From: an uncultured bacterium
GTDB lineage: Bacteria > Zixibacteria > MSB-5A5 > CAIYYT01
DNA length: 64,000 nucleotides
Assembly: GCA_903930455.1 (NCBI GenBank)
Contig: CAIYYT010000235.1
Location: forward strand, 771-64,770
Direction of reading: 5' to 3'
Part shown: positions 3,522 to 64,000 of the stretch, piece after piece
How positions within the stretch are numbered: the stretch's first letter is position 1
How the letters are laid out: every line of letters begins with the position of its first letter
Made by a program: the position numbers and the translations under genes
The notes under the pieces: model-generated
Database searches by the model: none
The model's input: only the letters and a program-made list of their open reading frames with translations
Told to the model about the DNA's origin: nothing

Positions 3522-3525
3522 TAGG

Positions 3526-6897: not shown

Positions 6898-7067
6898 TTA
6901 ACCCAAATCCTTTGTGGAATGCCATTCATTTTATTGGGCCTTTCTTTCGATGAAACTACTTTGGAGCATCTCAAAAATCAAGGACTTTCATGAGTGATTC
7001 TGAGGCAGGTGCGAAATCTCATGGCGACTTGATCCCGATTCCTTCATCGAACAGTCGCCCATTACGC

Positions 7068-7460: not shown

Positions 7461-7731
7461 ACAACGAGCATTCACCCAGAATGCGAGCCTCTTGTAGCCT
7501 CTTCTAGATGTCTGAAAGCACACTCTGGGCTTGACTTGATACGTGGTCGACAAGCATCGGCCGCAGGGGTCATCAAGAGAAGCAGCGTCTAAAATGTATT
7601 CAACCTCTTATCGGCTGCTCAGCGACATTTTACCGAAACCCGTCAATCAATCATTGACATAGCAGTTCCTTGCGACATGGTCATTTGCATTAAGGCATTA
7701 ATTTTGATTCTAGAATCGGTCATGACGGTTC

Positions 7732-8241: not shown

Positions 8242-8276
8242 TTGCTTTCCTCTCCCTAGCCCTTAACGTATGGTGG

Positions 8277-10792: not shown

Positions 10793-11118
10793 AGGATGCC
10801 TCCCTAATGGGTGTATAGGCAGAGTGTATATCTTCTGTAGATCGGCTGTAGATTGACGTTCTACACCCTTATCGCCACACCCTGATGCCTAAGAGCTACT
10901 TAATTATTCTTTGTTCACCCAACTAAACCCGTCTTTTCGACGGTTGTACCACTGCCGCCTACTTAGGCAGATGATGATATGTCACAATTGCCAGGTTCTT
11001 GTTGACAGAGTTGCTTGAATGCGCGACCTTCACAAGACCTATGGGAGGTAAGTTGCTGTTGGACCTCATGTAATCGTGGAAAAGTACAGACAGATCATTG
11101 AAAGGTGAGGACGCTGGA

Positions 11119-11892
11119 ATGGGAGAGAAACTTAGGATTTTTGTAGAGAGAAATCTCAAGCTAGTGAATCTCATCGTGCTTTTGGTTGGCATTCTTCTCA
11201 TGGTAATTGGATTGCTATTGGGCAAGGCTAGTCCTTCTGTTGCCTTGGTAATGGTAGGTGTTGGGAGCTCGGTCGTGGCAAGCGCTCTTGTTTTCTACCT
11301 CTCCAGCTTTATGTTGGTTCGTCAATTGGAGGTTCAAGATATTGTGTCGGAATGGGGACTTGTAGCGGTCTACAGAACTCGCGCGGAAATGAATCAGAAG
11401 AGTAATCAATATTTGGGAAAGGCTAAGGGTAAGCTGGATATTATCGCATTCGGACTGCGTTCACTGCGCGACAATATGTCCTCTGTAATTGAGGAGAGAG
11501 TCAAGTCGGGTCTCTCGATTAGAATACTGACGATTGACCCCAATTCGACCGTCGTGAGTTTAAGGGAGATAGACGAACAGCAGTCTGACGGATCGATCAA
11601 GAAGACTATCTGTGATCTCGCATCTTGGGTGTCACAAATTCGCGCACATCAGGCGAGTGGCTCTCAGGTGGAGATTAGGTTCTATAATGCGTTGCCTCAG
11701 GATTTCTATTACCGGGTAGACGACCATTTATTTGTCGGCCCGTACCTGTTTGGAAAGACTAGTCAGCAGACTATTTCTTACGAGTTTAGGTCCGGCTCTC
11801 TCGGGTTTGACTATTGGACTGAGTATTTTGATTCATTGTGGTCGAACAGGAATTTCTCGGTGATTCATGAAGAATTCGGCAAAAGTGCGTGA
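11119..11892 (+). CDS. 2TM membrane protein with ~200-aa C-terminal soluble domain of unknown function
   Basis: Two N-terminal hydrophobic helices. An AAAGGTGAGGA RBS precedes ATG 11119 (the ORF track starts at TTG 11098). A distant paralogue lies at 22694-23536. Its 3' end overlaps the radical SAM gene. Confidence 0.55.
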   Translation: MGEKLRIFVERNLKLVNLIVLLVGILLMVIGLLLGKASPSVALVMVGVGSSVVASALVFYLSSFMLVRQLEVQDIVSEWGLVAVYRTRAEMNQKSNQYLGKAKGKLDIIAFGLRSLRDNMSSVIEERVKSGLSIRILTIDPNSTVVSLREIDEQQSDGSIKKTICDLASWVSQIRAHQASGSQVEIRFYNALPQDFYYRVDDHLFVGPYLFGKTSQQTISYEFRSGSLGFDYWTEYFDSLWSNRNFSVIHEEFGKSA

Positions 11893-12832
11893 TAGTGAGA
11901 TCCTCTCTGTGGATCGTCGGACACAAAGTGAGATGTTACCCGAATACTCGGATGGCCGATTTTTCATAAGCCCAGTGTTGGGTTGTTCTGCTCATTGCAG
12001 CTACTGTTATATCTACAGTGAAGGATTTGGGTCCAACGTCTGCAAGAATCCGCTTTCTATTGGGCGACTGATTTCTTGGCTTGAATCTCATGAGCGATTT
12101 CGTCTAGGGCGTAAGGGATCAATACTCTCTGTCGGTGCCTGGGGAGATCCATTTGCTCCTGAGGTTTCTGTTGAGGTGACTCTTGAATTGATTCGCCAAC
12201 TTTCGGCTCTAGGAAATCCCATTCAACTTATTACGAAATACCCTATTACTGAAGATGTACTGGATGCCCTGGCCAAAGTCTCGCTGTATCGGGGCCACTT
12301 GTTGTTTTCAACGTCGATCGTATCCATTACAAACTGGCAATCGATTGATCCGAAAGTATCATCCCCAGAAAATAGATTGAAAATGCTTGCGCGAATGGAA
12401 AACCGCCAAATTCCAACGAACTTGATGATCAAACCATTTCTGCGTGGCATTACTGACATTGACACCGTCATCTTTAAGCGTGAATTGATGCTAAACCGCG
12501 TAACGAGTTGTGTGGTTGGCGTGCTCTATTGGAACGCCAAGATAGCTGAACGAATCTATGGTTCTACTCACGACCATAATACCTTCACGAAGATGCTGAG
12601 GAATCGGATATTGGATCACGGACTCGTCTGTCGACCTGCTTCCATTTACAGAACGTTCTCTGGAGAGGCTATGGATGGGTTTTGTGCTGAGTTGATGGAT
12701 GCTGGTATCCGCGTTTTTAAGAACGCGTCTTGCGTCAGTGCATGGTTGACGGACACAAGACATGTGAGTGGACTAAGGCAATCCGATCCGTTAGGACTCT
12801 GCGTGAATTGCGAAAACGCTGCTTGCCAATAA
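11867..12832 (+). CDS. Radical SAM protein, SplB/COG1533 (DNA photolyase-like) family
   Basis: SPVLGCSAHCSYCYIYS matches the COG1533 CxxxCxxC cluster (PY.GCSHGCIYCYA). An alternative start is ATG 11933. Confidence 0.7.
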   Translation: MKNSAKVRDSEILSVDRRTQSEMLPEYSDGRFFISPVLGCSAHCSYCYIYSEGFGSNVCKNPLSIGRLISWLESHERFRLGRKGSILSVGAWGDPFAPEVSVEVTLELIRQLSALGNPIQLITKYPITEDVLDALAKVSLYRGHLLFSTSIVSITNWQSIDPKVSSPENRLKMLARMENRQIPTNLMIKPFLRGITDIDTVIFKRELMLNRVTSCVVGVLYWNAKIAERIYGSTHDHNTFTKMLRNRILDHGLVCRPASIYRTFSGEAMDGFCAELMDAGIRVFKNASCVSAWLTDTRHVSGLRQSDPLGLCVNCENAACQ

Positions 12833-12901
12833 CTACCGCCTTTGGTATTTTTACGGTTAGAAGGTGAACCGATCACTAAGGACATTTCAAGCAAGAGCTT
12901 T

Positions 12902-13555
12902 ATGCGCAAGACAGATGTGATAAAGAAGACAGTCATTCATGTTCGCAGTCTGCAGCAGCAGGAGAGTACTGGGCACGATTGGTGGCACACCCACAGAGTC
13001 TGGCAGATGGCCAAGAAAATAGGTCGGATAGAGAAAGCCGACCTATTAGTTGTTCAGTTATCTGCGCTGCTGCATGACGTTGCAGACTGGAAATCACACG
13101 AAGGCGACTTCGAAGTTGGTGCCAGGGAGGCACGAACGTGGCTCTCGCGATTCAGTCTTGATCCCAAATGCATTGACCATATCTGCTGGATAGTACAGTC
13201 CATTTCATTCAAAGGTGTTGCCGCCAAACGGAGCGATCTAACGCTCGAAGCGATGGTGGTTCAGGATTCAGATCGATTGGATGCGCTTGGAGCAATCGGA
13301 ATCGCCAGAACATTTGCCTACGGTGGAAGCAAGGGGCGGGCCATATATGATCCAAGTGTTCGTCCAGTGAAGCATAAGACGGTCAAGTCGTATGTCGACA
13401 ATAAGAGTCCATCTATTAACCACTTCTATGAGAAACTTCTGCTTCTGAAGACGCGAATGCATACAGAGACTGCTCGCCGTATTGCTTCGAACCGCGATCA
13501 GATCATTCGTGACTTCTTGAGAGAATTCTACGATGAATGGCGGGGTAGGAAATAA
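12902..13555 (+). CDS. HD-domain phosphohydrolase
   Basis: H..H at WWHTHRV and HD at ALLHDVAD, then DSDRLDALGAIGIAR. The ORF could start earlier at 12842. Confidence 0.75.
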   Translation: MRKTDVIKKTVIHVRSLQQQESTGHDWWHTHRVWQMAKKIGRIEKADLLVVQLSALLHDVADWKSHEGDFEVGAREARTWLSRFSLDPKCIDHICWIVQSISFKGVAAKRSDLTLEAMVVQDSDRLDALGAIGIARTFAYGGSKGRAIYDPSVRPVKHKTVKSYVDNKSPSINHFYEKLLLLKTRMHTETARRIASNRDQIIRDFLREFYDEWRGRK

Positions 13556-13626
13556 ACTCTGATAAGAAATCGTCTCGGCTCACCTCAGATGTGTGCAACA
13601 GTAGGATTCATATATAACCACGCGCA

Positions 13627-18671: not shown

Positions 18672-20462
18672 ATGCAAAGAGCCATTGTCTATTGCCGTGT
18701 CTCGACCGAAGAGCAAGCCGAGGACGGTCACCACTCGCTCGCCGCGCAAGAGTCGCTCTGCCGACGCTGCGCTTCTGAAAAGCAATTTGAGATTGTTGAA
18801 GTTTTCCGCGATCCCGGCAAGAGCGCTACTACGATGAACCGGCCAGGACTGCAAGACGCGCTTGCTCGCTGCCAGTCGGATCATTCTATCAAGGCCGTCT
18901 TCGTACAAGACACAGATCGGCTTGCTCGAAATACAAAGGATCATCTCACTATTCGAGCAATGCTCAAGAAGCACGACGTGCGACTCATTTCGGTATCACA
19001 ACCAATGCTTGAAGATAGCGCCGAAGGCATGATGATTGACACTATCATCGCGAGCGTGAATCAGTTTCAATCTGATATCACTTCCCGCAAGACCATGAAA
19101 GGGCTTGAGGAAAAAGTCAGAAACGGCGGCTGGCCAGCGCTCGCTCCAGTAGGCTACAAGAATGTTGGCGTGGGACCTGAGGGCCAATCCCGAATCGTTG
19201 TCGTTGACAATGAATCGGCTCCTCTCGTGCAAAAACTGTTCCGATCGTATGCAACCGGTAACTATTCCGCGCGAGAACTTAATGACATCTTCTACAAACA
19301 AGGTCTCCGGTCCCGAACCGGAAGGAAGCTCCAAGACAGCAAGATCTTCGACATGCTTGAAAACAAATTCTATCTTGGTGAGGTACGCTGGGGCGGAATC
19401 GTCGCCAAAGGACAACATGAACCATTGATTGATGCCAGTCTATTCGCGGCTGTAAAGGCGGTCTTGATGGCACACGGTGGTAACAGAAGTAGAAAGCGAA
19501 AGCACGATTTCCTACTCCGTGGCTATCTCTTCTGCGGCAGTTGCGGCGGGCGGCTAATTGGCGAGAAGCATATTCTGAAGGGAGTAGCCTACTATCGTTG
19601 TCACAAGCGCGGCGGCTGTGAACCGTTGTGTTCAGCCCCTGAACTGGAATCAGAAGTTGCTGACCTATTCAGTCATTTGCAGCCTTCTCCTGGGCTCCTC
19701 AAGGCAACGGAGACAGCCTTGCGGGCACGCGCTAATGCTCATAAGAGTAACTTTGAAGCCGAGCGATCTTCGCTTCTGAAGCGAAAAGCTGTTGTTGATA
19801 CAAAGCTGCACAAGCTGGAAAGCAAATGGCTTGACGGGCTTCTTGATGATGCTGATTTCAAGAGGCTCCGCGTCGATCTTAAGAAACTGCAATCGGATAT
19901 GGAGAACCAAATTGCTGGTATGGAATCGAAAAGATCACTGGACTATGATGCCCTCGCAGAAGTTGTTGCCTTCGCACGCGATCTTGGGAACTCATACTCA
20001 AGAATCCCAGATCATCTCAAGAGATTGTTGCTGAAGTTTGCTTGGGAAAGACTTGAGGTTGCCAATAGGCAAATCACAGTGGCTCTCCCGACGATGCTGT
20101 TCCGTAGTCTTAGCAATTTTGAGGAAGGCTCTCCTCGGGGAACACAGAAACCCGTCCAATATGAACGGGCTTCTATGCAAGGGGGTGACTGTCACCCCAC
20201 ACGGTTCCCAATGAACCAAGACTTGGTTCGATTAGGCACCGAGTGGGGTCGCAAGCCAACACATAATCGTCCAGAGAAAACGCAAGAAGTTCCTTTTGCA
20301 GGCAACATTTCCGACCTCATGCAGCTCCTTGATTCTGATCCAGGCTACATTCAGCATGTCCTGACTCTCTTTGCGGAGATTCGGGATGGGATGAAGGCGT
20401 GGAAGGAAGGTTTGAATTCTTCCGATCCTGTCTCTGTCGATGCCAAATCCATTGCTCGATGA
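18672..20462 (+). CDS. Large serine recombinase (resolvase/invertase N-terminal domain, recombinase domain and zinc ribbon)
   Basis: Catalytic N-terminus AIVYCRVSTEEQ, a recombinase domain, and a zinc-ribbon (YLFCGSCGG...YYRCHKRGGC) followed by a coiled-coil. Confidence 0.85.
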   Translation: MQRAIVYCRVSTEEQAEDGHHSLAAQESLCRRCASEKQFEIVEVFRDPGKSATTMNRPGLQDALARCQSDHSIKAVFVQDTDRLARNTKDHLTIRAMLKKHDVRLISVSQPMLEDSAEGMMIDTIIASVNQFQSDITSRKTMKGLEEKVRNGGWPALAPVGYKNVGVGPEGQSRIVVVDNESAPLVQKLFRSYATGNYSARELNDIFYKQGLRSRTGRKLQDSKIFDMLENKFYLGEVRWGGIVAKGQHEPLIDASLFAAVKAVLMAHGGNRSRKRKHDFLLRGYLFCGSCGGRLIGEKHILKGVAYYRCHKRGGCEPLCSAPELESEVADLFSHLQPSPGLLKATETALRARANAHKSNFEAERSSLLKRKAVVDTKLHKLESKWLDGLLDDADFKRLRVDLKKLQSDMENQIAGMESKRSLDYDALAEVVAFARDLGNSYSRIPDHLKRLLLKFAWERLEVANRQITVALPTMLFRSLSNFEEGSPRGTQKPVQYERASMQGGDCHPTRFPMNQDLVRLGTEWGRKPTHNRPEKTQEVPFAGNISDLMQLLDSDPGYIQHVLTLFAEIRDGMKAWKEGLNSSDPVSVDAKSIAR

Positions 20463-53330: not shown

Positions 53331-53374
53331 GGCTCATAACCCGAAGGTCGCAGGTTCAAATCCTGCCCCCGCTA
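53331..53374. repeat. Direct repeat (attR core): displaced 3' half of tRNA-fMet, followed by CCA
   Basis: 44 bp identical to 742-785. Here the repeat continues gctaCCA, matching a native tRNA 3' end. There is no 5' half upstream. Confidence 0.85.
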
Positions 53375-54534
53375 CCAAACCTAAGCCCTTGAAGAGCAAC
53401 ACCTTCAGGGGCTTCATTATAGACAGTGGAGTCTTGGTTGGCGGGTTCTTCTAACAATCTTCTAACAGAATTGCCGAAAACTGTTTGATCTAACCTCCGC
53501 GCCGCCTCTTTGTGCGTGCCGGGGAAGAGATGTCCGTAACGGTCCAGCGTCGTCTTGGCCGAACTATGGCCCAGCTGCGACTGCACGAACTTGATATCCT
53601 CTCCCTGCGCGATCAGAAGCGATGCGTAGGTATGCCTCAGGTCATGGAAGCGTATTCGTCGTATCCCAGCTCTGTCGAGTGTCGGCAGGAACTGCCGCTT
53701 GACGAGATTATCAGGGTCGAGTGGACCACCATTCACATCGCAGAAAACCAGATCTAACTCAGTGGATTTACTAACAGTGCGGTGATACATGAGAGTCCGA
53801 CTCAACAGCGGCGACAGCATGATCCGTCGGATCGAATACGCCGATTTCGGTGTCTGAAAAGTACCTCGATACAGCGATCGCCGCACACTGATCTGGGACG
53901 AATTCCAGTCGATATCGCCCCACTTCAACGCCATCAACTCGCCGCGGCGCATTCCTGTCAATACGGCGGTCATGAACAGTGGCTGATAGCGCGAATCCGC
54001 ATGCTCCAGGAACAGGCAGACTTCTTCGGGTAAAAGAAAGTCCATCTCTTCCATCTCAACACGCGGGCGTTTCACGTACGTTGCCGGATTGCTGCGCAGA
54101 TACCTCCATTCAACTGCGTGTTCCAGCATTTCCTTCAGCGGGACCAATATGTTCACTACCGACTTCGGACTGAGGCCGTCAATCCTGATCTTTCTCGCAA
54201 GTAGGCGCTGGATGTCGGAACCGGAAATCTGATGCAGCCATAGCTTGCCCAGAGAAGGTAAGAGATGACGCCGCGTAATCGCTTCATAACTAACAAACGT
54301 TGACTGCTTGACACTCACTTTCGCATAGTCTTGCAGCCACATCTCAGCGAACTCCGCAAACGTCGCCTTCTTGAGCTCGGCAACAGCTTCCTCGTAGACT
54401 TCGGTAACCCGCCTGACGAGCAAGCGTTCAGCTCTTTTCTTGCTCGGTCCTGCGGATTCCCATCGTTGACGGCCGTTTACTCGATAAACGGCATACCAAC
54501 ATCCAGCGCGTTCAACAACGCTTCCTTTTGCCAT
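53356..54534 (-). CDS. Tyrosine integrase (phage type, with N-terminal arm-binding domain)
   Basis: AGGAGGTG RBS before ATG 54534. N-terminal GSVVERAGCWYAVYRVNGRQRWE is an AP2-like arm-binding domain. The catalytic region reads HDLRHTYASLLIAQGEDIKFVQSQLGHSSAKTTLDRYGHL. The last codons lie inside the 44-bp att repeat. Confidence 0.85.
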   Translation of the reverse strand: MAKGSVVERAGCWYAVYRVNGRQRWESAGPSKKRAERLLVRRVTEVYEEAVAELKKATFAEFAEMWLQDYAKVSVKQSTFVSYEAITRRHLLPSLGKLWLHQISGSDIQRLLARKIRIDGLSPKSVVNILVPLKEMLEHAVEWRYLRSNPATYVKRPRVEMEEMDFLLPEEVCLFLEHADSRYQPLFMTAVLTGMRRGELMALKWGDIDWNSSQISVRRSLYRGTFQTPKSAYSIRRIMLSPLLSRTLMYHRTVSKSTELDLVFCDVNGGPLDPDNLVKRQFLPTLDRAGIRRIRFHDLRHTYASLLIAQGEDIKFVQSQLGHSSAKTTLDRYGHLFPGTHKEAARRLDQTVFGNSVRRLLEEPANQDSTVYNEAPEGVALQGLRFGSGGRI

Positions 54535-54819
54535 TTGCTTTTCACCTCCTTTCAGTCTGGCATGGCTATAAGGTTTAAGGGCCTGGAGTTCATTGCAGTG
54601 CCTAGCGAAGTCACAGCGCAGCGATTGCAGCGAGACCGAGACCGAAGGTCGGTTGGCAACTAAAAACCGCGTTGCCAGATACGATACTGCAGAACGGCTG
54701 ACAAAATCTGGCCGGTGCGATGCGTTCGAAAAAGCACTCATTATGAAGCAACATACGGCAATTCTCCCGCGATTTCAAGTGCTGTTTGCCCTTTGGTGAT
54801 TCTGACTGCCGGCGCAGTA

Positions 54820-55008
54820 TCATTTGGCTCCTCCTTTGGACTTCGCCTTTAGATATTCGAGTACTTCCTTTTCAAGAAACCTCACGTACTTGCCAAATTT
54901 GTAGTGAGGAATCTGTTCGGTGCCGTTTTTCCGGGTGCGGTCATATATCCATGTCACTGGAACCCTCAGGCGTTTGGCCAACTCATTGATGTCGAGATAC
55001 GTGTCCAT
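54820..55008 (-). CDS. Excisionase/AlpA-family HTH DNA-binding protein
   Basis: YLDINELAKRLRVPVTWIYDRTRKNG...IPHYKFGKYVRF is an Xis/AlpA-like HTH_17 pattern. It is adjacent to the integrase. Confidence 0.65.
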   Translation of the reverse strand: MDTYLDINELAKRLRVPVTWIYDRTRKNGTEQIPHYKFGKYVRFLEKEVLEYLKAKSKGGAK

Positions 55009-55015
55009 CGTCTCT

Positions 55016-55630
55016 TCAATCTGCGTCTGTCTTGCGATGCCAGCATATAGTGATCGAGATAAAGTGACACCAGTTGTTGGTGACTTGGTGTTTTCCGAGT
55101 GGGGCTTTGACGAGGTTTCCAAGTTTGCCTGTTTCGATGTGGTCTTGTTTGGGGAAGATCTCGTGACTTGGGCTGATTTCCTGTCCCAGTGCTCTGACGA
55201 TTCGGTTTGGGTAGGGTTTGTCGAAGAATATCCAGATGTGGTAGCCTTTTTTTCCGGAGAATTCGGTCAGACATGGAATCCTCAACTGGCTGACGCGCTG
55301 TTGTACCTTGCGGAGTTCGGCTTCGTCCAAAGTGTCGATGTCGATGCAAAGCCACTTGGTGGTACTGTCTGGTGAGGAGTGAAGGCTGATGGTTTTGCTG
55401 CCTTGTGGGTGGTCTGCTTTGATGGCGTCGGTTATTGGTTCTCGGATGACGGTGTAGCCGCCGTTGCCAGCTATTTGTAGTGGGTAGCAGTCTTCGCGCT
55501 GGATGAAGCGTTGGCGAAATAGGTTGATGATATCTTGACTCGGTGTTGTTGTCATTTGTTCCATTTCCTCCCTACTGACTCTCAAGCGGATGGTTTGGTG
55601 CTTCGGTTTCAGATCGGAGCACTTAGCCAC
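55016..55630 (-). CDS. Primase-polymerase (Prim-Pol/AEP) domain protein
   Basis: WLCIDIDTLDEAE (DxD) and SGKKGYHIWIFF (sGxGyHhW motif). The N-terminal boundary is uncertain. Confidence 0.6.
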   Translation of the reverse strand: MAKCSDLKPKHQTIRLRVSREEMEQMTTTPSQDIINLFRQRFIQREDCYPLQIAGNGGYTVIREPITDAIKADHPQGSKTISLHSSPDSTTKWLCIDIDTLDEAELRKVQQRVSQLRIPCLTEFSGKKGYHIWIFFDKPYPNRIVRALGQEISPSHEIFPKQDHIETGKLGNLVKAPLGKHQVTNNWCHFISITICWHRKTDAD

Positions 55631-56138
55631 CTGCTTTGTTGTGTTTGCTTTTAGACTTGGCCGGCGCTCTGGAGTAGCGCTATCAAGTCTTGATATGTGT
55701 TGGTGAAGCGAGACGGGTTGGACTCGCGAATCACTTTAAGTAGTGAGTCCCCGAAAAGCTTTATCAAGTGGGTGACTATCTGCTTCTGCAGTGGCCAATC
55801 GGTGGGATTGATGAGATTGGTTGTGCGCCATTCGATCAGCCGGATGAGTGTTCAAGAGGTGGGCGTATCCCGAGTTGGGGGAAAGCTTCACTGAACAGTT
55901 TGCGTTGGAGCGAATCTGTCAGCTAAAGCTTCTGCCCCCTTGAGAGAATGGGTCTGGTTTCCGGTGACTCGGAGGTTTTCGATTATTGTGTGGCATTGTG
56001 GTAGATAGCGCGTTGGAGAGATTGTTGACACCGTTTTCCGGCTTTCCAAATGGGTAAACTGTGGGAAGATCACGAATAGCAGACTGTAAAGGCTTCTGCA
56101 GCCAAACACAGGAAAAAAAGACAAAGGAACTCGAGTTA

Positions 56139-56336
56139 CTACTGGTAAGCCTCCTCTAAATAAACTGGATAATCATCATAGCAGAAGTCTGGGTACCAGA
56201 TGTCGCGTCTTAGTTCCTCCTCAGGGGAGGTGTCTGGTTCGTACTCTAGTCGTATCTTGCGTCGTTGGAGTAGGCTGGCTACTTGTCGTTCTCCCTGGCT
56301 TCGATATTGCTGGTTGAGCTTGTTTTCGAGCGTCAT
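56139..56336 (-). CDS. Hypothetical small protein
   Basis: ORF. Its start overlaps the stop of the upstream gene by 4 nt. Confidence 0.35.
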   Translation of the reverse strand: MTLENKLNQQYRSQGERQVASLLQRRKIRLEYEPDTSPEEELRRDIWYPDFCYDDYPVYLEEAYQ

Positions 56337-57415
56337 TTTGTGAGTTTGTTCATGATTTCGACTTCTCCTCGTGTGAGGCGTAGTAGCTGCTTTTGGACGT
56401 TTCTGAGTTTGTCGAGCAAGTTTTGTAATTCGTCTTGCAGTCTTTGTGCTTGGATTAGGTAGGTTATGGCTTGTTTCGCGTTGCTGTGTCCCAATTCGTT
56501 CAACGCCAAGTTTAGGTTTCGTTGGAATTCTTGGTGGTATTGTTCTATGCGTTTTTCGATGAGTTGGATGGCTTGGTTGGCCATTATGCTTTGTCGTTCA
56601 ACTTGGATGGCTTCCTTGAGGAGTCGTTGGTTGTCTGGCGTGAGTTGGTTGTAGGTTTGCGAGAGCCGTGTGAATCCTGCGATATCCCACTGCTCGAGTT
56701 TCTGGTTGATGACTTTGAGCTGGTTCATGGAGCGACTGAGTTCGCTGTCCTGTCTTTGAAGGTCTGATAGTACTTCTCTTATGGCTGGGGCCGTCGTTGG
56801 CGTGATGCCTTTGGTCTTGAGTACGTCGATGACGGTTTTGATGTCTCGTCCGATGACTTTTTCGGTTTTGGCTGCTTGCTTTTCTTCCTTAGTGGATTGT
56901 TCAGTGAGATTTTCCCTTTCCCGATACTTTCCGGTGTCGGGCTTTGGGGCAGTTTTCTGCGTCGCTTTGCCGGTGAGGTCGATTTCGGACAGTACGTCTT
57001 TGCCTGATGGGAAGTGGCTTTTGGCCTTCATGACGAGCATGACGATTAATACTGGTATGGTTATGAGTACTGCGGAATCAACCCAGGCTGCGAATTGGTT
57101 GCTTTGCGCCCATTGGTAGATTTCGGGGAATGTGGCTCTGGTGAGGAAGTACGTAATGATAAAAGCAGCGAGTCCCGAGGTGGCGGTGTTTCCGCCGATG
57201 TGCTTGATGAAGATGAATACTGTTAGTGCGACGAGGCTGAGCAAGATGACTGCCGCAAGCGGGGCGAGGTTTCCGAGTCTGAATCCGGTCGTGTAGGAGA
57301 AGACCGTCATGGCAATGCTGAGGATAACTGCAATGCCGGAATTGATCATCTTTCCTTCTTTTCCCGGAAACTTCTTTGAAAGAACGAACCGCGAAAGGCC
57401 TGTGAAGATGATCAA
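56333..57415 (-). CDS. Polytopic membrane protein with C-terminal coiled-coil
   Basis: 4-5 TM segments in the first ~150 aa, then a K/E/Q-rich coiled-coil. Confidence 0.5.
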   Translation of the reverse strand: MIIFTGLSRFVLSKKFPGKEGKMINSGIAVILSIAMTVFSYTTGFRLGNLAPLAAVILLSLVALTVFIFIKHIGGNTATSGLAAFIITYFLTRATFPEIYQWAQSNQFAAWVDSAVLITIPVLIVMLVMKAKSHFPSGKDVLSEIDLTGKATQKTAPKPDTGKYRERENLTEQSTKEEKQAAKTEKVIGRDIKTVIDVLKTKGITPTTAPAIREVLSDLQRQDSELSRSMNQLKVINQKLEQWDIAGFTRLSQTYNQLTPDNQRLLKEAIQVERQSIMANQAIQLIEKRIEQYHQEFQRNLNLALNELGHSNAKQAITYLIQAQRLQDELQNLLDKLRNVQKQLLRLTRGEVEIMNKLTK

Positions 57416-57536
57416 GTAAACGACGAAATCGATGAAAGTGCTGTATTGCTGATATGTTGATGCGATGTTGATGTCTCGGAATGGTTGAAGTATGGTTTCG
57501 AGCGGATTCGCGATGTTGGATTCACCTCGTGGTTTT

Positions 57537-58730
57537 TTATTGTAGTGCTTCGAGTAGTCTGTTGATGCAGTTGTTTTTGGTTTCTTCAGGCATGGTGAGC
57601 GTGATGCGCTTGGACTTTTTCTTGAGAGTTTTGAGCCAGCCAGTATCGGCGTAGATCAATCCCATGTCACTGAAGTAGATCAAGAAGTTGCGGACCATGC
57701 GGTCAGTTAGGGGTGTGTATTTGTATTTGTGGCAGTGCTGGGTGTAGTCTTTGTAGATGTCTTCTGAAGGAATAATCCGCTTCGAGTTGAGCAGTATTGA
57801 TAGGAAGAGGATTTTTTGGTGTGTGGGTAGGGCGCCAACTATTCCAGTGTAGGCTTCGCTTTCTCCACGCTCCTGGGCTTCCTCAAAGATGCTCAGCGGA
57901 ATGGTCGGGAGCCTTCTTTCGATGGCGACGAGTGCACAGTAATACAACAGCTTCAAGGCTTCTCTTGCGTCTCCTCTCTTTGTTGTTTCTGCGGCGGCGA
58001 TCTTTTCGAGCAGTCCTTCTCCTATGACGTTGGGTTTGAAGCAGTAGTTGATTCTGTCTTGCATGATTTTGAGCAGGTCTTGGGCGTTGTAGGGAGTGAA
58101 GATGATCTTGTTGCGTCCAAAGCTGCTCGTGACTCTGGGTTTGATGTAGTTGGAAACGTTTACGTCATTGGAAATAATGATTGTAGTGACACGACTGGAA
58201 ACAAAGTCGTTAATGCGGCTAAGCAGGTAGAGAATGTCGTCTCCAGACTGCTTGAGCGTGTGGTCGATCTCATCCAAGACGATCAACAAATTCATCTTCT
58301 CCCTGTTCAAGTACTCTTTGAATTCATCAATCAACTTGGCTCGATTCCACCCGACTCGAGGAATCTTGCGATCCGGGTTCAGGATCTTGAGAGTGCTGGA
58401 TAGGATGGTGGCGTCGGTCTTGTTCTCCTCGCAGTTGATGTAGACCGTCTTGAGGTTGACTCCTCTTTTTTCTGCTTCTGTTTCCAGCTTGCAAGTGATG
58501 TCGAGGGTCAGCGCCGTCTTGCCAGTACCTGGGAAACCGTAGATGAACAAGTTGCTGGCTGCCTGATTCAGAAGAATCGGGCTGAGTTGGATGACGAGGT
58601 CGTTGTGCTGTTTCTCGCGATGAATGAACTTGCCCGACGGTGGCTTGAGCTGAAAGAGAGCCTGTTGGTTAACGAGAAGCCTGTTTTCCGCTGTGTCCTT
58701 GAATTCCAAAAGGGAAATACATATCACCAC
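57537..58730 (-). CDS. Orc1/Cdc6-like AAA+ ATPase with C-terminal winged helix
   Basis: LFIYGFPGTGKTA (Walker A), LLIVLDEIDHT (Walker B) and a sensor region. The length and arrangement resemble archaeal Orc1/Cdc6. It is unusual in bacteria. Confidence 0.6.
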   Translation of the reverse strand: MVICISLLEFKDTAENRLLVNQQALFQLKPPSGKFIHREKQHNDLVIQLSPILLNQAASNLFIYGFPGTGKTALTLDITCKLETEAEKRGVNLKTVYINCEENKTDATILSSTLKILNPDRKIPRVGWNRAKLIDEFKEYLNREKMNLLIVLDEIDHTLKQSGDDILYLLSRINDFVSSRVTTIIISNDVNVSNYIKPRVTSSFGRNKIIFTPYNAQDLLKIMQDRINYCFKPNVIGEGLLEKIAAAETTKRGDAREALKLLYYCALVAIERRLPTIPLSIFEEAQERGESEAYTGIVGALPTHQKILFLSILLNSKRIIPSEDIYKDYTQHCHKYKYTPLTDRMVRNFLIYFSDMGLIYADTGWLKTLKKKSKRITLTMPEETKNNCINRLLEALQ

Positions 58731-59075
58731 AATTGTCAGAACACCGCTCCCTTATATAGTTTTCCATCTCAGACAAGATTTCCATTCCCGCCCATTGGTG
58801 GGAGGCCCAGAACTCGATTTCGTTGTCAGCGATCACAATCTGATCATGCCGGCCAACTATGAGATTGATTTGAAGACACTGAGGGAGTTTTCGCAATGGC
58901 TTGGCTGACCATTTATTTTCCATATGGAAGGAATTGACTTGGGACACAATAGCTAATACTGGCGTCGACTCGTAGGTTGGAAAAGCACTGGCACTGACAT
59001 CGACTTCCTCTATGTCGGGACTGGTAAGGGTGATCCAGGCAGGGTTGTTCGCGCTCTAGTGTAGTGCCATACCTA

Positions 59076-62042
59076 TCAGACAATCAACACAGCGTCAGAG
59101 CCGTCCTCGCCCTTTTTGAGGGCTAAAATGGCCGGGAACTTGCTGGAATCCGCAGTTGGCGCAGGTTTCAAACCTTTGAGCATCTTGTATACGTTCTTGG
59201 CATTTGACGTCCTGATGAGAAGGCTGATGTTTTCCGATTTTACCGGAAAGGTACTGTTGCTATCCGTAGTGAGGGTTTTGGTGGCGGTGATGACTTCCTG
59301 GACGAATGCCTCATAAGTACCTTTGTAAACGATTTCTGGCAGGACCCAACGGTTTCTCAGATAGCTGATGTGTTTCTTGAGGTAGTTGAAGGCTAGAGGG
59401 CCGGCGCCAGCATATCTGATGATGGCGCAAAGCCAGGAACAGGGATACTCGCGGATGAAGCCCGTGCCGCTTCCTGCTTCCGACGATGGGTAAAATGGAG
59501 GTTTCTTAGTGGATTGTGTCAGTTTCTCGATGCGAATGGACTGCAGCAGAACACCATGCCCGGTCACAACCACCTTCTTAGCTCTTTGGATGATCATCGT
59601 TCTCGATAGCCACAGCCGAAGCTTAAGCTCTATTGAAACGCTCTGGGATGTGTCTTTGGCGATTTGGTCAAAGAGGGTCTTGGCATCGGTCCCTCGTTCA
59701 GTATCCTGATTCGACGAGCGTGAGAACAGTCGTAGTCCAAGCTTTCTGGTTGCCACGGTTTTCGGATCTGGTGGTTCAGCAAGCGCTTCCAGCTGTTTTT
59801 GCTGGGTACTCTCCAGGTGCACCTTTTCGTCGAGAAGGGCTTTGGCAATGGCGGGCAGGAATGGCTTTAGTTGTGTCGAAGTGGTCCCGCTGGTCGCAGA
59901 CTTCTTGTCAGAGAAGTCGAATTCCTTGGTGCTCTTGATTGTTAGGTCGTAAGCGTTTTTTGTTAAACCAAAGGAGACACAGTTTGACAGTTTGTACTCT
60001 ATCTTTTGGCCTTGACCACTGGCTAAGGGGACAAGGTTTTCCATTGATAGCCGTCTGATGCAATTGTGACAGTCATATTTTGGCGAATAAGTGCAACTTC
60101 GTTTTTCCCGAGTGTCGCCGTCGAATTTTTCACGGAGAAGCTTGACTCCCCTTTTGGTATTCCATTCGGCGTCGGAGGCGTATTTAACCTTGGGCCGTTT
60201 TCCAGTCTTCTTGTCATCGAAGGGAAGGCCTGCCCAGTGTTTGAAACCGTCAACAGTTTCCTGCCGTGGAGTATATTGTGATCCGCCCCAGCCTCGGGAG
60301 TAGGCCCACGACCTGTTTGGGTCTCCCTTTACGGGCACAGTTCGGGTGCGTTCGGCGTCAAAGACGTGTTTTCCTCCTGTGTTGCTCCAGTCAACTCCCA
60401 TCAGGACTATTCGCTTGATTCCGAGGTGGTTGTCGGCCCAGGGTCGCCAGGCATTGATGACATGTTTTCCTCCAGATTCATGACCCATGACGGACACGAT
60501 AAGCTTGTCCGGAACAGTATCACCGTGTCCTGAAGTGAACTCCTGGGTGGATTCTCGCAGAATCTGAACGAAAGTCTTGTCTTCTTTCACCGTTAATTCG
60601 TCATTGATCGGGACGCGAAAAACCCCCTTACCCTTCAGGGGGGCGTCAACGCCAATCATGTGCTTGATATAGAGTGCGGTTTCCCAATCTACTGCGGAGT
60701 AATGTTTGAGTTGTTCCTCGTAAGTTCCCGCTTCTGGGGCCTTAGTCTGGTAAAATGTGTTTAGCCTTTCGACCAAGACTTGGGTCTTTCTCAAGCAGAT
60801 GTAAAGATCGTTTCTCAGTTTGATCAGGGCCTCAAGGTGCGATTGGCGGTTTTTGAGGATTTTCTCGCGCAGCTTGTCGCTGCCTTCAGCAGCATTTCCT
60901 GATTCAGCTGTGCTCTCTTTGAGTTTCCGTATGTCCAGACGAATCCAGTTTATACCATCCAGGGCATGGTCGAGTTGAACCAACCGGTTGTTGGTTTCGA
61001 CAAGGAATTGCTGCAGAGAGGCAATATTGTTTTCAACCTTATCAGGAACGATCTTCTCAAGCTTCACGGCGCTGAATTTTGTCCCGCTCTGGTATGAGGA
61101 AGTGCTGTTACCCAATGTGGATGAGCCTTTTTCCGATGTCTCCGCGGCATCTTGGCAAAGTGATTTCAGCTCAGACTGGTAGTCAGGCTGCTTGGCCTGC
61201 CCCAATTCTTTACGGTTGAGTATCTTATCAAGTCCTTTGGTTGCGCCTGCAATCCGCTGACATGCTCCTTTGATGGGCAGGGTCAGATCAAGCTTTAGGG
61301 TGCGAGATTTTGGCTGCGCCTGTTTGGTGCAGGCTGTCTTTAGTTGCGCGGTAATGCTTTTAAGGAACGACTCGATGCTAATGTAGACCCGTTTGGACTT
61401 CTGGTCGACTTTGGTACCGGCGATGATGGCGGCAAATTTCGTAAAGGCAGCCTGGCTCTCCCCTGGATAGGCAAGAGAATTGTCGTAAATGATTTTCCCC
61501 TTGGCCTCCAATTTCTTGGGTTTCTCTGTATAAAGGGTCTTCCTCGTGTCAATTTCGACACCATAGCGAAAGTGCAGGTCCCATTTCAGCGCCAATACTG
61601 CGCCTGCCAGATGCCAGTGGAATTTGCCCCATTCCTCTTCGGCCATAAAGCGGCCGAATGGCTCGTAGTAACCTAGGCGCATTAAGTCTACTTTCAACTC
61701 GAACACGTAGTGGTTCTTACCCGGGCGCACCTTTCCTTCGTAGGTTTGGGTGGCATCATCGTCACCAAACGCTAACTGGTATTCTCCGTAAGGTAGGCGC
61801 GTCATAGCAAGGGCCAGTGTCCCAGCGGGCCTACGGGCCTGAGCGGTCGGGACTTTGTCTTTGTCCTTTGCTTCAATCAGTTCTAAGCCGCACTGGTTGC
61901 ACTTTGGTTTGCCCGAGCCAGGCGATAGGTTGACTTCGATGCAGTGTCCTTGGCGGTTGGCAGCGGAGTTGATACAGTCGGGGTTTGGGCAGAAATAACA
62001 GCTCTCACCGGACATAAGATCCCCTGTCGCTACGGTTCTCAA
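59076..62042 (-). CDS. Large (988 aa) protein: N-terminal zinc ribbon, peptidoglycan-binding-like repeat, coiled-coil, lysozyme/transglycosylase-like region
   Basis: CYFCPNPDC...CNQCG zinc ribbon. LKVDLMRLGYYEPFGRF...AVLALKWDLHF resembles PG_binding_1. VMGHESGGKHVINAW...GIKRIVLMGVD is a lytic-transglycosylase-like E-S motif. Function is inferred loosely. Confidence 0.4.
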   Translation of the reverse strand: MRTVATGDLMSGESCYFCPNPDCINSAANRQGHCIEVNLSPGSGKPKCNQCGLELIEAKDKDKVPTAQARRPAGTLALAMTRLPYGEYQLAFGDDDATQTYEGKVRPGKNHYVFELKVDLMRLGYYEPFGRFMAEEEWGKFHWHLAGAVLALKWDLHFRYGVEIDTRKTLYTEKPKKLEAKGKIIYDNSLAYPGESQAAFTKFAAIIAGTKVDQKSKRVYISIESFLKSITAQLKTACTKQAQPKSRTLKLDLTLPIKGACQRIAGATKGLDKILNRKELGQAKQPDYQSELKSLCQDAAETSEKGSSTLGNSTSSYQSGTKFSAVKLEKIVPDKVENNIASLQQFLVETNNRLVQLDHALDGINWIRLDIRKLKESTAESGNAAEGSDKLREKILKNRQSHLEALIKLRNDLYICLRKTQVLVERLNTFYQTKAPEAGTYEEQLKHYSAVDWETALYIKHMIGVDAPLKGKGVFRVPINDELTVKEDKTFVQILRESTQEFTSGHGDTVPDKLIVSVMGHESGGKHVINAWRPWADNHLGIKRIVLMGVDWSNTGGKHVFDAERTRTVPVKGDPNRSWAYSRGWGGSQYTPRQETVDGFKHWAGLPFDDKKTGKRPKVKYASDAEWNTKRGVKLLREKFDGDTREKRSCTYSPKYDCHNCIRRLSMENLVPLASGQGQKIEYKLSNCVSFGLTKNAYDLTIKSTKEFDFSDKKSATSGTTSTQLKPFLPAIAKALLDEKVHLESTQQKQLEALAEPPDPKTVATRKLGLRLFSRSSNQDTERGTDAKTLFDQIAKDTSQSVSIELKLRLWLSRTMIIQRAKKVVVTGHGVLLQSIRIEKLTQSTKKPPFYPSSEAGSGTGFIREYPCSWLCAIIRYAGAGPLAFNYLKKHISYLRNRWVLPEIVYKGTYEAFVQEVITATKTLTTDSNSTFPVKSENISLLIRTSNAKNVYKMLKGLKPAPTADSSKFPAILALKKGEDGSDAVLIV

Positions 62043-62050
62043 CGGCTGTT

Positions 62051-62677
62051 TCAGGCGGCAGCATCTGGCGTTGCCTCTTGTTGGTCAGAAGTCTCTTCCG
62101 AGGACTCAGATTCCTCTTCTGGTTCTTCTTCGAAGTCTTCTGAGGTGTCTTCTTCTTCCACGCAGTCTACTTCTTCGTATTCGATGTTCTCGTCAGCCTC
62201 TTCCAGTTCATCATAGAATTCAAGATCATCTTCTGCAAGGTCTTCTAGCTCGACATCCTCTTCATAGTCCTCGTCTGTCAGATCCTCTTCCCATAGCTCT
62301 TCTTCGACGCTGATGAGCTCATCCGGATGGTCGGGAATATAAGTGGCATTTTCCTCGGCTGAATCATCTACGAGGGATTGCTCAAACTTTGTTCGCTCTT
62401 CTTCGTTGAGCACTCTTATTACCCGGCCGTCGGCAAGTTCGATTTGGACGTCGGCGTTGAGATCGACGCTTTCTTTCAACCATCCTTCTTCGTCCGTCTT
62501 GCCTTTGATCTCCTTGGAACCAGCAGTCAATGTGTATTCACAGTCTGCCTGGGGTTCTCCCGCGCAGTCGACGACGCGAACTTTGAGGCGCGTATCGTAC
62601 GTAAAGGTATACTTGTTTCCAGACGACAACTTTGCTTCCGAGGAATTCAAGCTAATGTGCTTCTCGTCCTTATTCAC
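62051..62677 (-). CDS. Highly acidic protein (D/E-rich C-terminal half)
   Basis: A ~90-aa N-terminal beta-rich domain followed by a ~110-aa run that is >50% Asp/Glu. Confidence 0.45.
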   Translation of the reverse strand: MNKDEKHISLNSSEAKLSSGNKYTFTYDTRLKVRVVDCAGEPQADCEYTLTAGSKEIKGKTDEEGWLKESVDLNADVQIELADGRVIRVLNEEERTKFEQSLVDDSAEENATYIPDHPDELISVEEELWEEDLTDEDYEEDVELEDLAEDDLEFYDELEEADENIEYEEVDCVEEEDTSEDFEEEPEEESESSEETSDQQEATPDAAA

Positions 62678-63485
62678 GTTCTTCCTCTCTTTCAGTCACC
62701 TGCCACTCCGCTCTGGATAGATTGACTTGGATAGTGGAGCGGTAAGATTCCGTTGACTTGGAAGCTTCGTCTTCATCTCGAGAGGGTAGCACTTGGCTAT
62801 GATAACGATAGGCAAGTCTGACAGATGATCCCCATTTTTCCAGCGGAAGTCCTTCGGTCTGCATGGTGATTGATGTAATGAGGGAATCGAAAGGATCTTG
62901 GGAATATTCTCTGAGAGTGTGAGCGAGTCTCGTAAACCCTATAAGGGTTTTCTTCTGTTGAAGGCTGAGAATTAGGATCATCTGGCCGCTGGCCAACCAG
63001 GTCCAAGGTTCGGTGTCATCTGCTTCGACAAAGTTAGCCTGCTTGGTCTCGTCCGTCTGATAGTTAAAGGAGAATTGACAGATGGCTTCTTGATTTCCAT
63101 CGCCGTCAATGTCCTGCAATATGATTCTCACATCCTTTAGTTCTGATGCTGGCATGTAATTGAACACTTCATTGACGGCCTCTTCTGTGTAGAGTCCGAA
63201 ATAGCTGAGTTCGAGTTTCTCTATGGTGCCGCCAGAGGCCACTAAGCAGCAGAAGAGCTCTTCCCCCGTGCTGCCGATAAACACTAGCTGATCGCCAATC
63301 GCGATGAGTTGTCCGTCCTGAACCGAGGTCGCAGCAGGAGTCGTCTGACTGGTATGGTTTTGCGAATAGACGGGTGGGGCTAGAATTAGCAGCCCCCAAA
63401 GAAACAAGCAGATCAATCGTCTGCCATTGCCCAGGAGGAGCTTTCTGCTTGGTGTATGTCGAGCACCTGGCATACTCTTTGCCAT
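62670..63485 (-). CDS. Secreted hypothetical protein
   Basis: Signal peptide ...LICLFLWGLLILAPPVYSQ. Confidence 0.45.
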   Translation of the reverse strand: MAKSMPGARHTPSRKLLLGNGRRLICLFLWGLLILAPPVYSQNHTSQTTPAATSVQDGQLIAIGDQLVFIGSTGEELFCCLVASGGTIEKLELSYFGLYTEEAVNEVFNYMPASELKDVRIILQDIDGDGNQEAICQFSFNYQTDETKQANFVEADDTEPWTWLASGQMILILSLQQKKTLIGFTRLAHTLREYSQDPFDSLITSITMQTEGLPLEKWGSSVRLAYRYHSQVLPSRDEDEASKSTESYRSTIQVNLSRAEWQVTEREEERE

Positions 63486-64000
63486 GAACCTCCGTGAAAC
63501 TAAAATAAGCTAACAATTACTGTTTCCTCGTCAAGGGCTTCTTGGTCGAATAATCGTTTGAAATTCTGTATGTGGCCTCCGCGTGCCAGAGAACAAGGTG
63601 TGGGCAGTTTTGAGCGAAGTCAAAGGTGCGTCTTCTACAGGACGAATTCGGAAAAGCAGAAGAGGCCTACTTAGTAAGTCTGGTGAAGGTATAGTGGAGA
63701 GCGCATACGCCAAGTTCGGCCTATGAGCGAAACGTTTACGTTGTGAGAATCTTCCCCACTATTAGATCGATCTCATCCATGAGGGTCTTGAGATGCCCCC
63801 GGACCGCAGCACGTTGTCGGGCAAGTGACTTTTGGAGAGTCGCGGAGGCGACAAAATCGGCGGCGGCTTGATGCGCCTCAGCCGAGAGCACCGCGAGCCG
63901 TGAATGAAGCTTGTTGGTCGATTGGTATAGGGGTATCGGAAGCTCGAGTACCTTTTTGTGAACGTGACGCTCTCCCTGAAGACCCATTGACTGGAAAGGC

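Follow-up and report, generated by a model that had tools for sequence, protein, structure and literature searches.

The 64,000-nucleotide stretch analyzed here (the window), from contig CAIYYT010000235.1 of an uncultured Zixibacteria bacterium, encodes a protein that is, judged by its sequence, a true Orc1/Cdc6, and carries its gene in a mobile island. Orc1/Cdc6 initiators define archaeal and eukaryotic replication, and archaeal Orc1 normally acts by loading MCM; bacteria use DnaA or plasmid Rep proteins. The gene in the window evidently descends from archaeal (DPANN-like) replication initiators, is intact, and is under very strong purifying selection, which marks its product as a functional protein of archaeal ancestry within bacteria. 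Our best reading of the region from 53,332 to past 64,000 is that it is the integrase-proximal half of a mosaic integrative island in a Zixibacteria/Ignavibacteria-type bacterium. The architecture of this island family is well supported: the islands integrate at tRNA genes and combine a constant trio of genes (orc1, a membrane/coiled-coil protein and a small endonuclease), two cargo hot spots, and a swappable end with integrase (int) and excisionase (xis) genes. A bacterial host is indicated by a sigma-54 activator, proteins with type IX secretion system tails, and a LexA-like protein in the window, and by relatives in Zixibacteria and Ignavibacteria metagenome-assembled genomes (MAGs).

The orc1 gene (57,537-58,730, minus strand) codes for a 397-amino acid (aa) AAA+ protein with ATPase, lid, and C-terminal winged-helix domains. 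Family assignments were made with Pfam, PHROGs, PADLOC, and NCBIfam. The protein scores 273.8 bits on the NCBI curated model TIGR02928, whose cut-off is 181.3 (E = 1.9e-81), and residues 20-362 align end to end with Sulfolobus Orc1-1 (PDB 2qby_A; E = 2.6e-44). Pfam matches are PF13401, PF00004, PF22703 (2.7e-9), and PF09079 (4.2e-9), and include the Cdc6_lid and Cdc6_C families. A preliminary description of this DNA had called the protein Orc1/Cdc6-like and had considered that it might instead be an IstB-like or DnaA-like ATPase; the Orc1/Cdc6 assignment holds, as the best IstB model gives an E value of only 0.0087. The Walker A (GFPGTGKTA) and Walker B (LIVLDEID) motifs, an ISND stretch, a GDAR stretch, and the winged helix are kept across the bacterial Orc1 clade (17 relatives aligned). 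We take ISND to occupy the sensor-1 position, and GDAR is presumably sensor 2. Against six relatives, orc1 shows a dN/dS of 0.04-0.05 at dS of 0.6-1.0.

Relatives with 59-97% identity occur in metagenomes, in Zixibacteria and Ignavibacteria MAGs, in one MAG of an unclassified "bacterium", and twice, on separate contigs, in another unclassified MAG. The next group, with 41-49% identity, contains among others proteins from Nanoarchaeota and Woesearchaeota whose contigs are 0.3-1.1 Mb long, and other archaeal Orc1 proteins show 30-37% identity. In a neighbor-joining tree the bacterial Orc1 clade is sister to the DPANN clade. The window protein is 48% identical to a chromosomal archaeal Orc1; the Nanoarchaeota orc1 gene is set among genes for aIF5B, a ribosomal protein, eRF1, and prefoldin, which marks it as a chromosomal initiator. 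Compared with archaeal proteins such as Sulfolobus Orc1-1 and DPANN Orc1, the island protein has the same AAA+/lid/winged-helix architecture and ATPase motifs, and its gene is likewise accompanied by a repeat element with the GGAAA half of the origin recognition box (ORB) core. The wing of the winged helix reads GWL in island Orc1, whereas most archaeal Orc1 proteins have a GR..GRT type; GWL is common to the DPANN sister clade. In contrast to the archaeal genes, orc1 of the window lies in a bacterial mobile island without MCM or any other archaeal replication gene, and its operon has membrane/coiled-coil and nuclease partners that the chromosomal archaeal copy examined does not have.

These partners are a constant feature. 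We examined 26 related orc1 loci from genomes and metagenomes (related loci are designated L and a number), and a homologue of the membrane/coiled-coil protein (p360) follows directly after orc1 in 26 of 26. A gene for a small protein of 130-141 aa is third wherever the contig extends, L037 being the sole exception at the threshold used. The ends of the three genes overlap or abut. Both partners lie between the primase-polymerase and Orc1 genes of the window, and neither had been part of the preliminary description: the truncated endonuclease gene at 56,139-56,336, and the membrane/coiled-coil gene from 56,333 to 57,415 or 57,514. Several distinct copies of the trio occur per sample (L012 and L014; L020-L024; L026-L037), each with different neighboring cargo. 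Two copies are found in one MAG (bin-0053), and single metagenomes contain copies on 5 and 10 different contigs. The most divergent trio locus (L009 1-5,000; 59% identity) adjoins a ClpB/ClpV-like ATPase, a sigma-54 activator, and an nSTAND3 protein.

The membrane/coiled-coil gene (56,333-57,514, minus strand) encodes 360 aa from a TTG codon at 57,415 or, probably, 393 aa from an ATC codon at 57,514, as aligned with L008, L009, and L010. It lacks ATG, GTG, or TTG at the start position of the homologues; the ATC codon at 57,514 aligns with the Met of the homologues and is preceded by GGTGA, and the alternative TTG start would drop the first hydrophobic helix. A hydropathy scan places 4-5 hydrophobic helices in its N-terminal part; the C-terminal half, about 200 residues long, is helical. 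There was no match in Pfam, PHROG, or NCBIfam, and PADLOC gave one marginal AriB match (E = 0.0069). This protein evolves faster than Orc1: the L024 homologue has 54% identity vs 93% for Orc1, and dN/dS of p360 is 0.10-0.18. The third gene is decayed in the window (55,945-56,336, minus strand), where a 65-aa open reading frame (ORF) at 56,139-56,336 and a displaced remnant at 55,945-56,016 were detected by tblastn. Its intact form of 130-141 aa in relatives matches PHROG_9019 ("Holliday junction resolvase") at 8.9e-11 and other endonuclease PHROGs. Like the window, L012, L022, L023, and L038 have a nuclease gene reduced to 65 codons. PADLOC-DB v2 contained no model match for Orc1 (only weak P-loop matches, with E of at least 3.7e-4), for the nuclease, or for the cargo proteins p988, p208, and p271 described below.

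A conserved cis-element precedes orc1 (58,753-58,784, minus strand). Two GGAAA direct repeats with an 18-nt spacing precede a TATATA box, and the whole element lies about 55 nt upstream of the gene. A strict pattern for the composite GGAAA-N-GGAAA-TATA motif had 19 matches in about 0.5 Mb of both strands, and 19 of 19 were upstream of orc1 in the correct orientation. The element is kept even in loci whose flanking nucleotides no longer align. Upstream of the Nanoarchaeota chromosomal orc1 (L011 5,822-6,000), four ACGGAAA repeats are followed directly by a TTTATATA box, a layout like that of the bacterial GGAAA/TATATA element. We read the GGAAA-repeat region as a putative Orc1-binding region, which may be an operator, an origin, or both. 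Farther out, 187-199 nt upstream of orc1, lies a dyad, TTCCATATGGAAA (58,917-58,929, minus strand), that resembles the core of the archaeal ORB; the ORB consensus is CTTCCAGTGGAAACGAAAGGGGT (PMC4153887) and its core CTTCCAGTGGAAAC (PMC4153887, PMC4164010). The dyad has a single match in 64 kb vs 0.07 expected, and a degenerate version is shared by L014 only. Iteron or ORB arrays were also sought in the intergenic regions by repeat finding, and none was convincing.

Every gene between 53,356 and 64,000 is on the minus strand according to the ORF list, and all ORFs of the preliminary description were recovered at their positions on that strand. In the direction of transcription, the order is the 3' end of a restriction-modification (RM) gene, p271, p208, p988, orc1, the membrane/coiled-coil gene, the 65-aa ORF, about 500 nt without ORFs, the primase-polymerase gene, xis, and int. 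The integrase is a tyrosine recombinase of 392 aa (start MAKGS; 53,356-54,534, minus strand) with matches to Phage_integrase (2.3e-24), Phage_int_SAM_3, and PHROG_1 (6.8e-78); its ORF extends up to 54,741, and the 392-aa product is the one annotated on public contigs. The excisionase-type helix-turn-helix protein (62 aa; 54,820-55,008, minus strand) matches HTH_17 (1.7e-9), TIGR01764 "excise" (2.8e-6), and PHROG_66, and the same HTH_17 gene is annotated on public contigs. The genes xis and int are followed, directly behind the stop codon of int, by the attachment site (att), a 45-nt copy of the 3' part of a tRNA-Met gene that reaches from the anticodon loop to the acceptor end (53,332-53,376, plus strand). 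It was found by sequence comparison, overlaps the last 7 int codons, and marks the int-proximal attachment-site junction. The intact tRNA-Met is at 711-786; ARAGORN and Rfam detected no other tRNA here and missed the 45-nt copy. The 21-nt core of the repeat occurs twice in the window vs 0.01 expected, so that the integrated element with int and xis and the left att repeat, both proposed earlier, are borne out. A tyrosine integrase beside a tRNA-derived direct repeat, with or without an excisionase, characterizes tRNA-integrating islands, and this arrangement is present here.

A public metagenome scaffold with identical proteins (L001) adds 9.5 kb beyond the window, the window coordinate being 73,486 minus the L001 coordinate. 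Further out, L001 carries small genes of no assigned family, a metallophosphatase, a response regulator, and a PilZ protein. Backbone homology with L015 persists at the window-equivalent position 73,484, where L001 stops, so that the island must extend beyond this point. Comparison of the loci gives a common family plan: backbone genes, hot spot 1, the operon of orc1, membrane/coiled-coil protein and small endonuclease, hot spot 2, primase-polymerase, xis, int, and att. The backbone genes p147, p133, and p242 had no Pfam or PHROG matches. The int/xis end is swappable in this family. In L023, the same orc1 trio and a 90%-identical primase-polymerase are followed by a 162-aa ORF, a different excisionase, a 33%-identical integrase, and an intact tRNA-Leu. 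There (L023 13,771-14,926), 7 nt separate the stop codon of the integrase gene from the 5' end of the intact tRNA-Leu(CAA), which places the L023 island 5' of the tRNA, a geometry opposite to that of the window. A phage identity of the element was also considered; an IMG/VR scan with Orc1 found no viral contig encoding a relative, and there is no evidence for it on this basis.

The first hot spot is defined by DNA comparison. Homology with L012 and L015 stops sharply at about 58,787, 55 nt upstream of orc1, and resumes at about 67,245. The 8.46-kb cassette in between (58,787-67,245) contains a type IIG RM enzyme, p271, p208, and p988. The RM enzyme is the first cassette gene, an MmeI-like protein of 1065 aa whose 3' end lies at 63,736-64,000 (minus strand); it runs past the window (L001 6,553-9,750), a continuation that the preliminary description did not contain, and it matches PADLOC REase_MTase_IIG at 1.7e-85 and PglX at only 4.1e-10. 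Elsewhere, hot spot 1 holds a type I RM system (L012), a DruE-type helicase (L013), or an HKD-Snf2 helicase with a IIG/PglX-like methyltransferase (L014), and it is nearly empty in L015 and L022. Because the cassette has sharp boundaries and is replaced by other defense systems in relatives, p988 is not part of the core, and p988 and the acidic p208 are evidently not functionally tied to Orc1 and PrimPol. The earlier assignment of these two proteins to the Orc1/PrimPol system therefore has to be revised, as they sit in a separate 8.5-kb cassette. The second hot spot begins at about 55,850, at the edge of a conserved non-coding block (55,845-55,960, minus strand) with a near-invariant hairpin of about 50 nt, and L010 has an 8.2-kb insertion exactly at this point. 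The imperfect hairpin (about 55,878-55,930, minus strand) lies just downstream of the nuclease gene and is kept in L010, L013, and L014 while the flanks diverge. It has no Rfam match and may function as a terminator, as a site of recombination, or as part of an origin.

The primase-polymerase (PrimPol) gene (55,016-55,630, minus strand; GTG start) encodes a 204-aa protein that has only the catalytic domain of the archaeo-eukaryotic primase (AEP) type. It matches Pfam PF22548 (AEP-TOTE; 1.1e-25, 91 bits vs a cut-off of 27), PHROG "DNA primase" (1.9e-21), NCBIfam PrimPol_Msp (3.8e-29, below its cut-off), and PADLOC PrimPol (2.8e-20), in agreement with the identity first proposed. Its motifs CIDIDT and GYHIW provide the acidic DxD and the conserved His motif. 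The protein ends 12 residues past the AEP match and has no helicase, helix bundle/PriCT, or zinc-finger domain; L023 has a faint PriCT_1 match (E = 0.042) in its separate 162-aa ORF. PrimPol homology ends at 55,062, inside the 3' end, in L023 and at 55,512 in L038, where 40 PrimPol codons precede yet another integrase. The 3' end of the gene (about 55,062) is evidently a recombination breakpoint with related elements. When window positions 55,000-58,730 are compared with L023, synonymous divergence is 0.82 for orc1 vs 0.15-0.39 for the nuclease remnant and PrimPol; this inequality indicates that backbone segments differ in history and points to recombination. The PrimPol ORF is unannotated on all public contigs with this sequence, an opposite-strand ORF of 112-151 aa having been chosen instead. 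The gene was also considered as a neutral pseudogene, which we reject at a dN/dS of 0.14-0.18 despite its truncated and frameshifted relatives. A TOTE conflict system, suggested by the Pfam name, is defined by TPR-CSD/OB and TBP partner genes beside the AEP gene (PMC12458937); it was rejected, as there are no TPR, OB, or TBP partner genes and the neighbors are xis, int, and the orc1 trio.

For the whole, we favor, with about even confidence, a mosaic tRNA-Met island that has an archaeal-derived Orc1 maintenance core and exchangeable weapons in hot spot 1. In such an island, Int and Xis, whose genes lie beside the tRNA-derived site, would integrate and excise the element there. Orc1 would bind the GGAAA repeats beside its own gene and would serve as initiator and/or autoregulator that maintains the excised form, aided by PrimPol and by the helicase and polymerase of the host; as no helicase is encoded, this step is an inference. 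Hot spot 1 would bring in the weapons, here the type IIG RM enzyme and p271-p208-p988. A maintenance role is favored since the trio behaves as backbone, since Orc1 is compact, canonical, and strongly constrained, and since a cognate-looking repeat element is kept. Beyond this, it is possible, though we hold it only tentatively, that a DPANN-like archaeal initiator was captured by bacterial islands, perhaps together with its GGAAA/TATA region, and is used without MCM in an obligate three-protein unit. If so, the trio would represent a new bacterial replicon initiation or membrane-tethered maintenance module, or a new Orc1-based defense system.

Several observations weigh against the maintenance reading. 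Neither the window and L001 nor any related locus examined codes for MCM, a DnaB-like protein, or another replicative helicase. PrimPol has just the AEP domain in the window, carries a frameshift in L023, and retains 40 codons in L038, and may therefore not be needed, and the nuclease gene is truncated in the window and in the four relatives named above. Just one ORB-like dyad is present, and 5 of 100 shuffles also reach one match; no clear AT-rich unwinding element or ORB array was found. A far-end att copy had been expected beyond the window, but none was found in the 9.5 kb past its end, either as a tRNA repeat with up to 3 mismatches or as any long direct repeat, and the excised form of the island was not observed. 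Consequently, of the self-replicating integrative plasmid first suggested, the integrated element stands and self-replication is not supported, given the lack of helicase and MCM in the loci examined and the AEP-only PrimPol. Finally, a tight operon that joins orc1 to a nuclease gene and to the gene of a rapidly evolving membrane protein, amid defense systems, is also what one would expect of a defense system.

In that alternative, which corresponds to the Orc1/Cdc6-based conflict system also raised in the preliminary description and which we consider less likely, the orc1 trio would be an anti-phage or anti-plasmid (abortive infection) system: Orc1 would sense invading DNA or a replication intermediate and activate the membrane effector and/or the nuclease, the island would simply be a defense island, and the replication role of Orc1 would have been lost. 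The three genes are indeed invariably linked and translationally coupled, p360 diverges much faster than Orc1 in the manner of conflict proteins, and the identifiable neighbors are all defense genes (RM types I and IIG, DruE, Avs-like STAND, SIR2-HerA, and nSTAND3). ORC/Cdc6-clade ATPases are also core to BREX and related systems (PMC12839542), and no helicase is present to support replication. However, PADLOC gives Orc1, p360, and the nuclease no model match past the weak ones; Orc1 is a compact canonical initiator, close to a chromosomal archaeal protein and unlike BrxC or DUF499; and the trio stays constant while defense systems swap on both sides, like backbone rather than cargo. It also has its own conserved upstream repeat element, as do orc1-adjacent origins or operators, and the nuclease is truncated in several copies whose Orc1 stays under strong selection. 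The position of the GGAAA repeats, immediately before a TATA-like box and close to orc1, is that of an operator or promoter rather than a replication origin, which together with the missing helicase could suit a different role of Orc1, i.e., a regulatory switch or DNA-damage- or signal-responsive transcription factor for excision or induction. A precedent for such a role of Orc1/Cdc6 carried by mobile genetic elements is documented: Orf8 of the haloarchaeal virus SNJ2 is reported to be an Orc1/Cdc6 homologue that regulates lysogeny induction (PMC10123103). Such a switch seems improbable for the island, as it leaves the obligatory membrane protein and nuclease partners unexplained and no repressor or antirepressor genes were recognized nearby; moreover, autoregulation and origin binding are compatible in archaeal Orc1. 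Maintenance by Orc1, with the confidence given above, remains the reading we prefer.

Known systems share parts of this organization. In BREX, ORC/Cdc6-clade AAA+ proteins (BrxC, BrxD, DUF499) likewise occur near a PglX-like or type IIG methyltransferase in a defense context, but BrxC has 1200-1300 aa, extra domains, and a divergent sequence (PMC12839542). A BREX-like reading of Orc1 with the IIG methyltransferase was considered and dropped, since the methyltransferase belongs to the cargo cassette, which most trio loci lack; PglZ, BrxA, BrxB, and BrxL were not found. Thaumarchaeal integrated mobile genetic elements (iMGE) reportedly encode Orc1/Cdc6 and/or PrimPol, and integrated archaeal plasmids and proviruses are said to combine, as here, a tyrosine integrase at a tRNA-derived att with Orc1/Cdc6 and an AEP PrimPol. 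Unlike these, the present island has a bacterial host and its cargo consists of bacterial defense systems. In other bacteria, tRNA-integrating, sequentially inserted, satellite-like islands with defense cargo have been described (PMC12458937). With these and with P4-like hot spots, the island shares tandem insertion at one tRNA, int and xis at one end, a small replication module, and large exchangeable defense cargo at fixed hot spots; they differ in using an HUH rolling-circle endonuclease or the P4 alpha primase-helicase in place of an Orc1 operon and PrimPol. No phage-derived genes were recognized in the window island. GMT islands are reported as mobile elements rich in defensive and offensive tools (10.1101/2023.03.28.534373).

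In a limited literature search, which is not proof of absence, no paper turned up that describes a bacterial mobile island whose conserved core is a canonical Orc1/Cdc6 operon of archaeal type. The present data suggest that a canonical, strongly selected Orc1 circulates among Zixibacteria/Ignavibacteria-type bacteria on a mobile island, together with a DNA motif and two fixed partners. They provide a concrete case of transfer of core replication machinery between domains via mobile elements, and raise the question of what an archaeal initiator does in a bacterial cell without MCM: recruit the bacterial helicase, regulate, or sense foreign DNA. In poorly studied phyla, the trio can also serve as a marker for two cargo hot spots in which to look for new defense and attack genes.

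The largest cargo protein of the window, p988 (59,076-62,042, minus strand), has 988 aa, or 979 aa from 62,015 according to gene callers. Its layout comprises, from the N-terminus, a Cys4 zinc ribbon, a PG_binding_1-like domain, a long helical region, a lytic-transglycosylase-like domain into which a Cys-rich segment is inserted, and a final C-terminal domain. The domain reading in the preliminary description (zinc ribbon, peptidoglycan-binding-like repeat, coiled-coil, H-E-S region) finds support in conserved motifs of the family alignments. Two of the zinc-ribbon cysteines are invariant and two nearly invariant in a 29-member alignment, and all four are invariant among the 8 nearest relatives. 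Conservation extends to the PG_binding_1-like motif, and Pfam PG_binding_1 matches one of the homologues at 1.3e-9. The helical/coiled-coil region spans about residues 190-440. An H-E-S-G motif is invariant in the closest members, with its Glu invariant across the family, and further conserved motifs are GxDW, SRGWGxxQxT, a CxxC-containing insert, and PCSW..YAGxG. AlphaFold2 models reach a pLDDT of 75-95 in the PG-binding-like and catalytic regions and predict a lysozyme-like fold with the catalytic Glu at a helix end, as in GH23/SLT enzymes. By sequence, p988 had no match in Pfam, PHROG, PADLOC, NCBIfam, or PDB; Pfam SLT matched neither p988 nor 28 homologues, PDB sequence searches with p988 and the family profile gave coiled-coil noise only, and a word-index homology search, with p988 alone and as family alignment, gave no matches. 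No signal peptide or transmembrane segment was detected. An exhaustive HMMER search found 54 representatives of the family among 1.84 billion.

GH23 enzymes have GLMQ and AYNxG motifs. Comparison with GH23 lytic transglycosylases and endolysins (MltE, MltF, Slt70, phiKZ gp144) and with Tse3, a muramidase effector of type VI secretion, shows the same invariant Glu-Ser at the helix end, and p988 has GWGxxQ and YAGxG at positions analogous to the two GH23 motifs and a PG_binding_1-like domain N-terminal to the catalytic domain. At 979 aa, p988 is far larger than the members of this group, from which it also departs by its N-terminal zinc ribbon, by about 250 aa of helical sequence, by the insert rich in Cys, and by an additional domain at the C-terminus. 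A limited literature search revealed no description of the family, and p988 appears to define a rare, undescribed zinc-ribbon/peptidoglycan-binding/lytic-transglycosylase family linked to type VI secretion.

The link to type VI secretion systems (T6SS) comes from the genomic context. The two closest full-length homologues, in L016 and L017 (33-36% identity), are inside T6SS clusters that carry ClpV, TssB, TssC, Hcp, VgrG, TssE, and PAAR, one of them also with FHA, PpkA, and PppA-type genes. In both, a p208 homologue is directly upstream of the p988 homologue. The acidic p208 (62,051-62,677, minus strand) begins with a conserved domain of about 95 aa and ends in a tail rich in Asp and Glu; the very acidic character noted earlier amounts to 75 Asp and Glu of 208 residues, and identity is 49% with L016 and 36% with L017. 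The adjacent p271 (62,670-63,485, minus strand) has one N-terminal hydrophobic segment, a signal or anchor, by hydropathy scan, and a weak homologue in the T6SS locus L016 (21% identity, 2.5e-12); it is a candidate envelope or immunity partner. Because the relatives sit in T6SS clusters, p988, predicted to be a lytic-transglycosylase-type peptidoglycan enzyme, would most likely be a T6SS-delivered cell-wall toxin, with p208 as its putative adaptor and p271 possibly acting at the envelope or in immunity. In the best reading, p271-p208-p988 would then be cargo next to the RM enzyme, an orphan module for a T6SS cell-wall toxin. A cell-wall-remodeling transfer protein, as first suggested, is unlikely, as the closest homologues are in T6SS clusters and not in conjugation loci; nor is p988 a housekeeping murein hydrolase.

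A rather unlikely alternative is that p988, p208, and p271 form a cell-envelope accessory for secretion or envelope machinery of the host, e.g., one that opens peptidoglycan for T6SS assembly. It would agree with the distant homologue in L018, which is beside an OmpA/PG_binding_1 protein with no T6SS genes in view, and with the OmpA-like N-terminus of L017_1087. On the other hand, p988 and its homologues have no signal peptide or transmembrane segment, so that their own wall would be unreachable by Sec, L017 already has a separate FHA-SLT protein, and the module of the window is mobile cargo by an RM enzyme, with secretion genes absent within 74 kb (no T6SS gene occurs in the window or L001). 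We therefore retain the toxin module as the preferred reading for these genes. In the T6SS loci (L016 1,141-6,611 and L017 8,631-9,497), the PAAR protein and neighbors of 288-308 aa carry repeated domains of about 60 aa, which have faint prealbumin/CarboxypepD_reg-like matches and a pattern that resembles the N-terminal domain of p208.

The remainder of the window has its own mobile character. The 52.6 kb between tRNA-Met and its 45-nt copy (786-53,331) form another mosaic island, with an integrase (864-1,814) and a serine recombinase (18,672-20,462) of its own, and the "second element" of the preliminary description, in a tandem array at one tRNA, is thus a fair description of the orc1 island. 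The upstream island also holds a LexA-like peptidase, AbiEii, AIPR, a 1045-aa SNF2 and N6-methyltransferase protein, a PDDEXK nuclease, and a TrwB/DUF87 ATPase. At about 2,900-13,600, a nucleotide-metabolism cluster adjoins two Replic_Relax genes. The cluster comprises a nucleoside deoxyribosyltransferase and NUDIX, PNP_UDP_1, HisG-like, thymidylate-synthase-like, radical SAM, and HD proteins, and looks like a DNA base-modification or nucleotide-depletion module.

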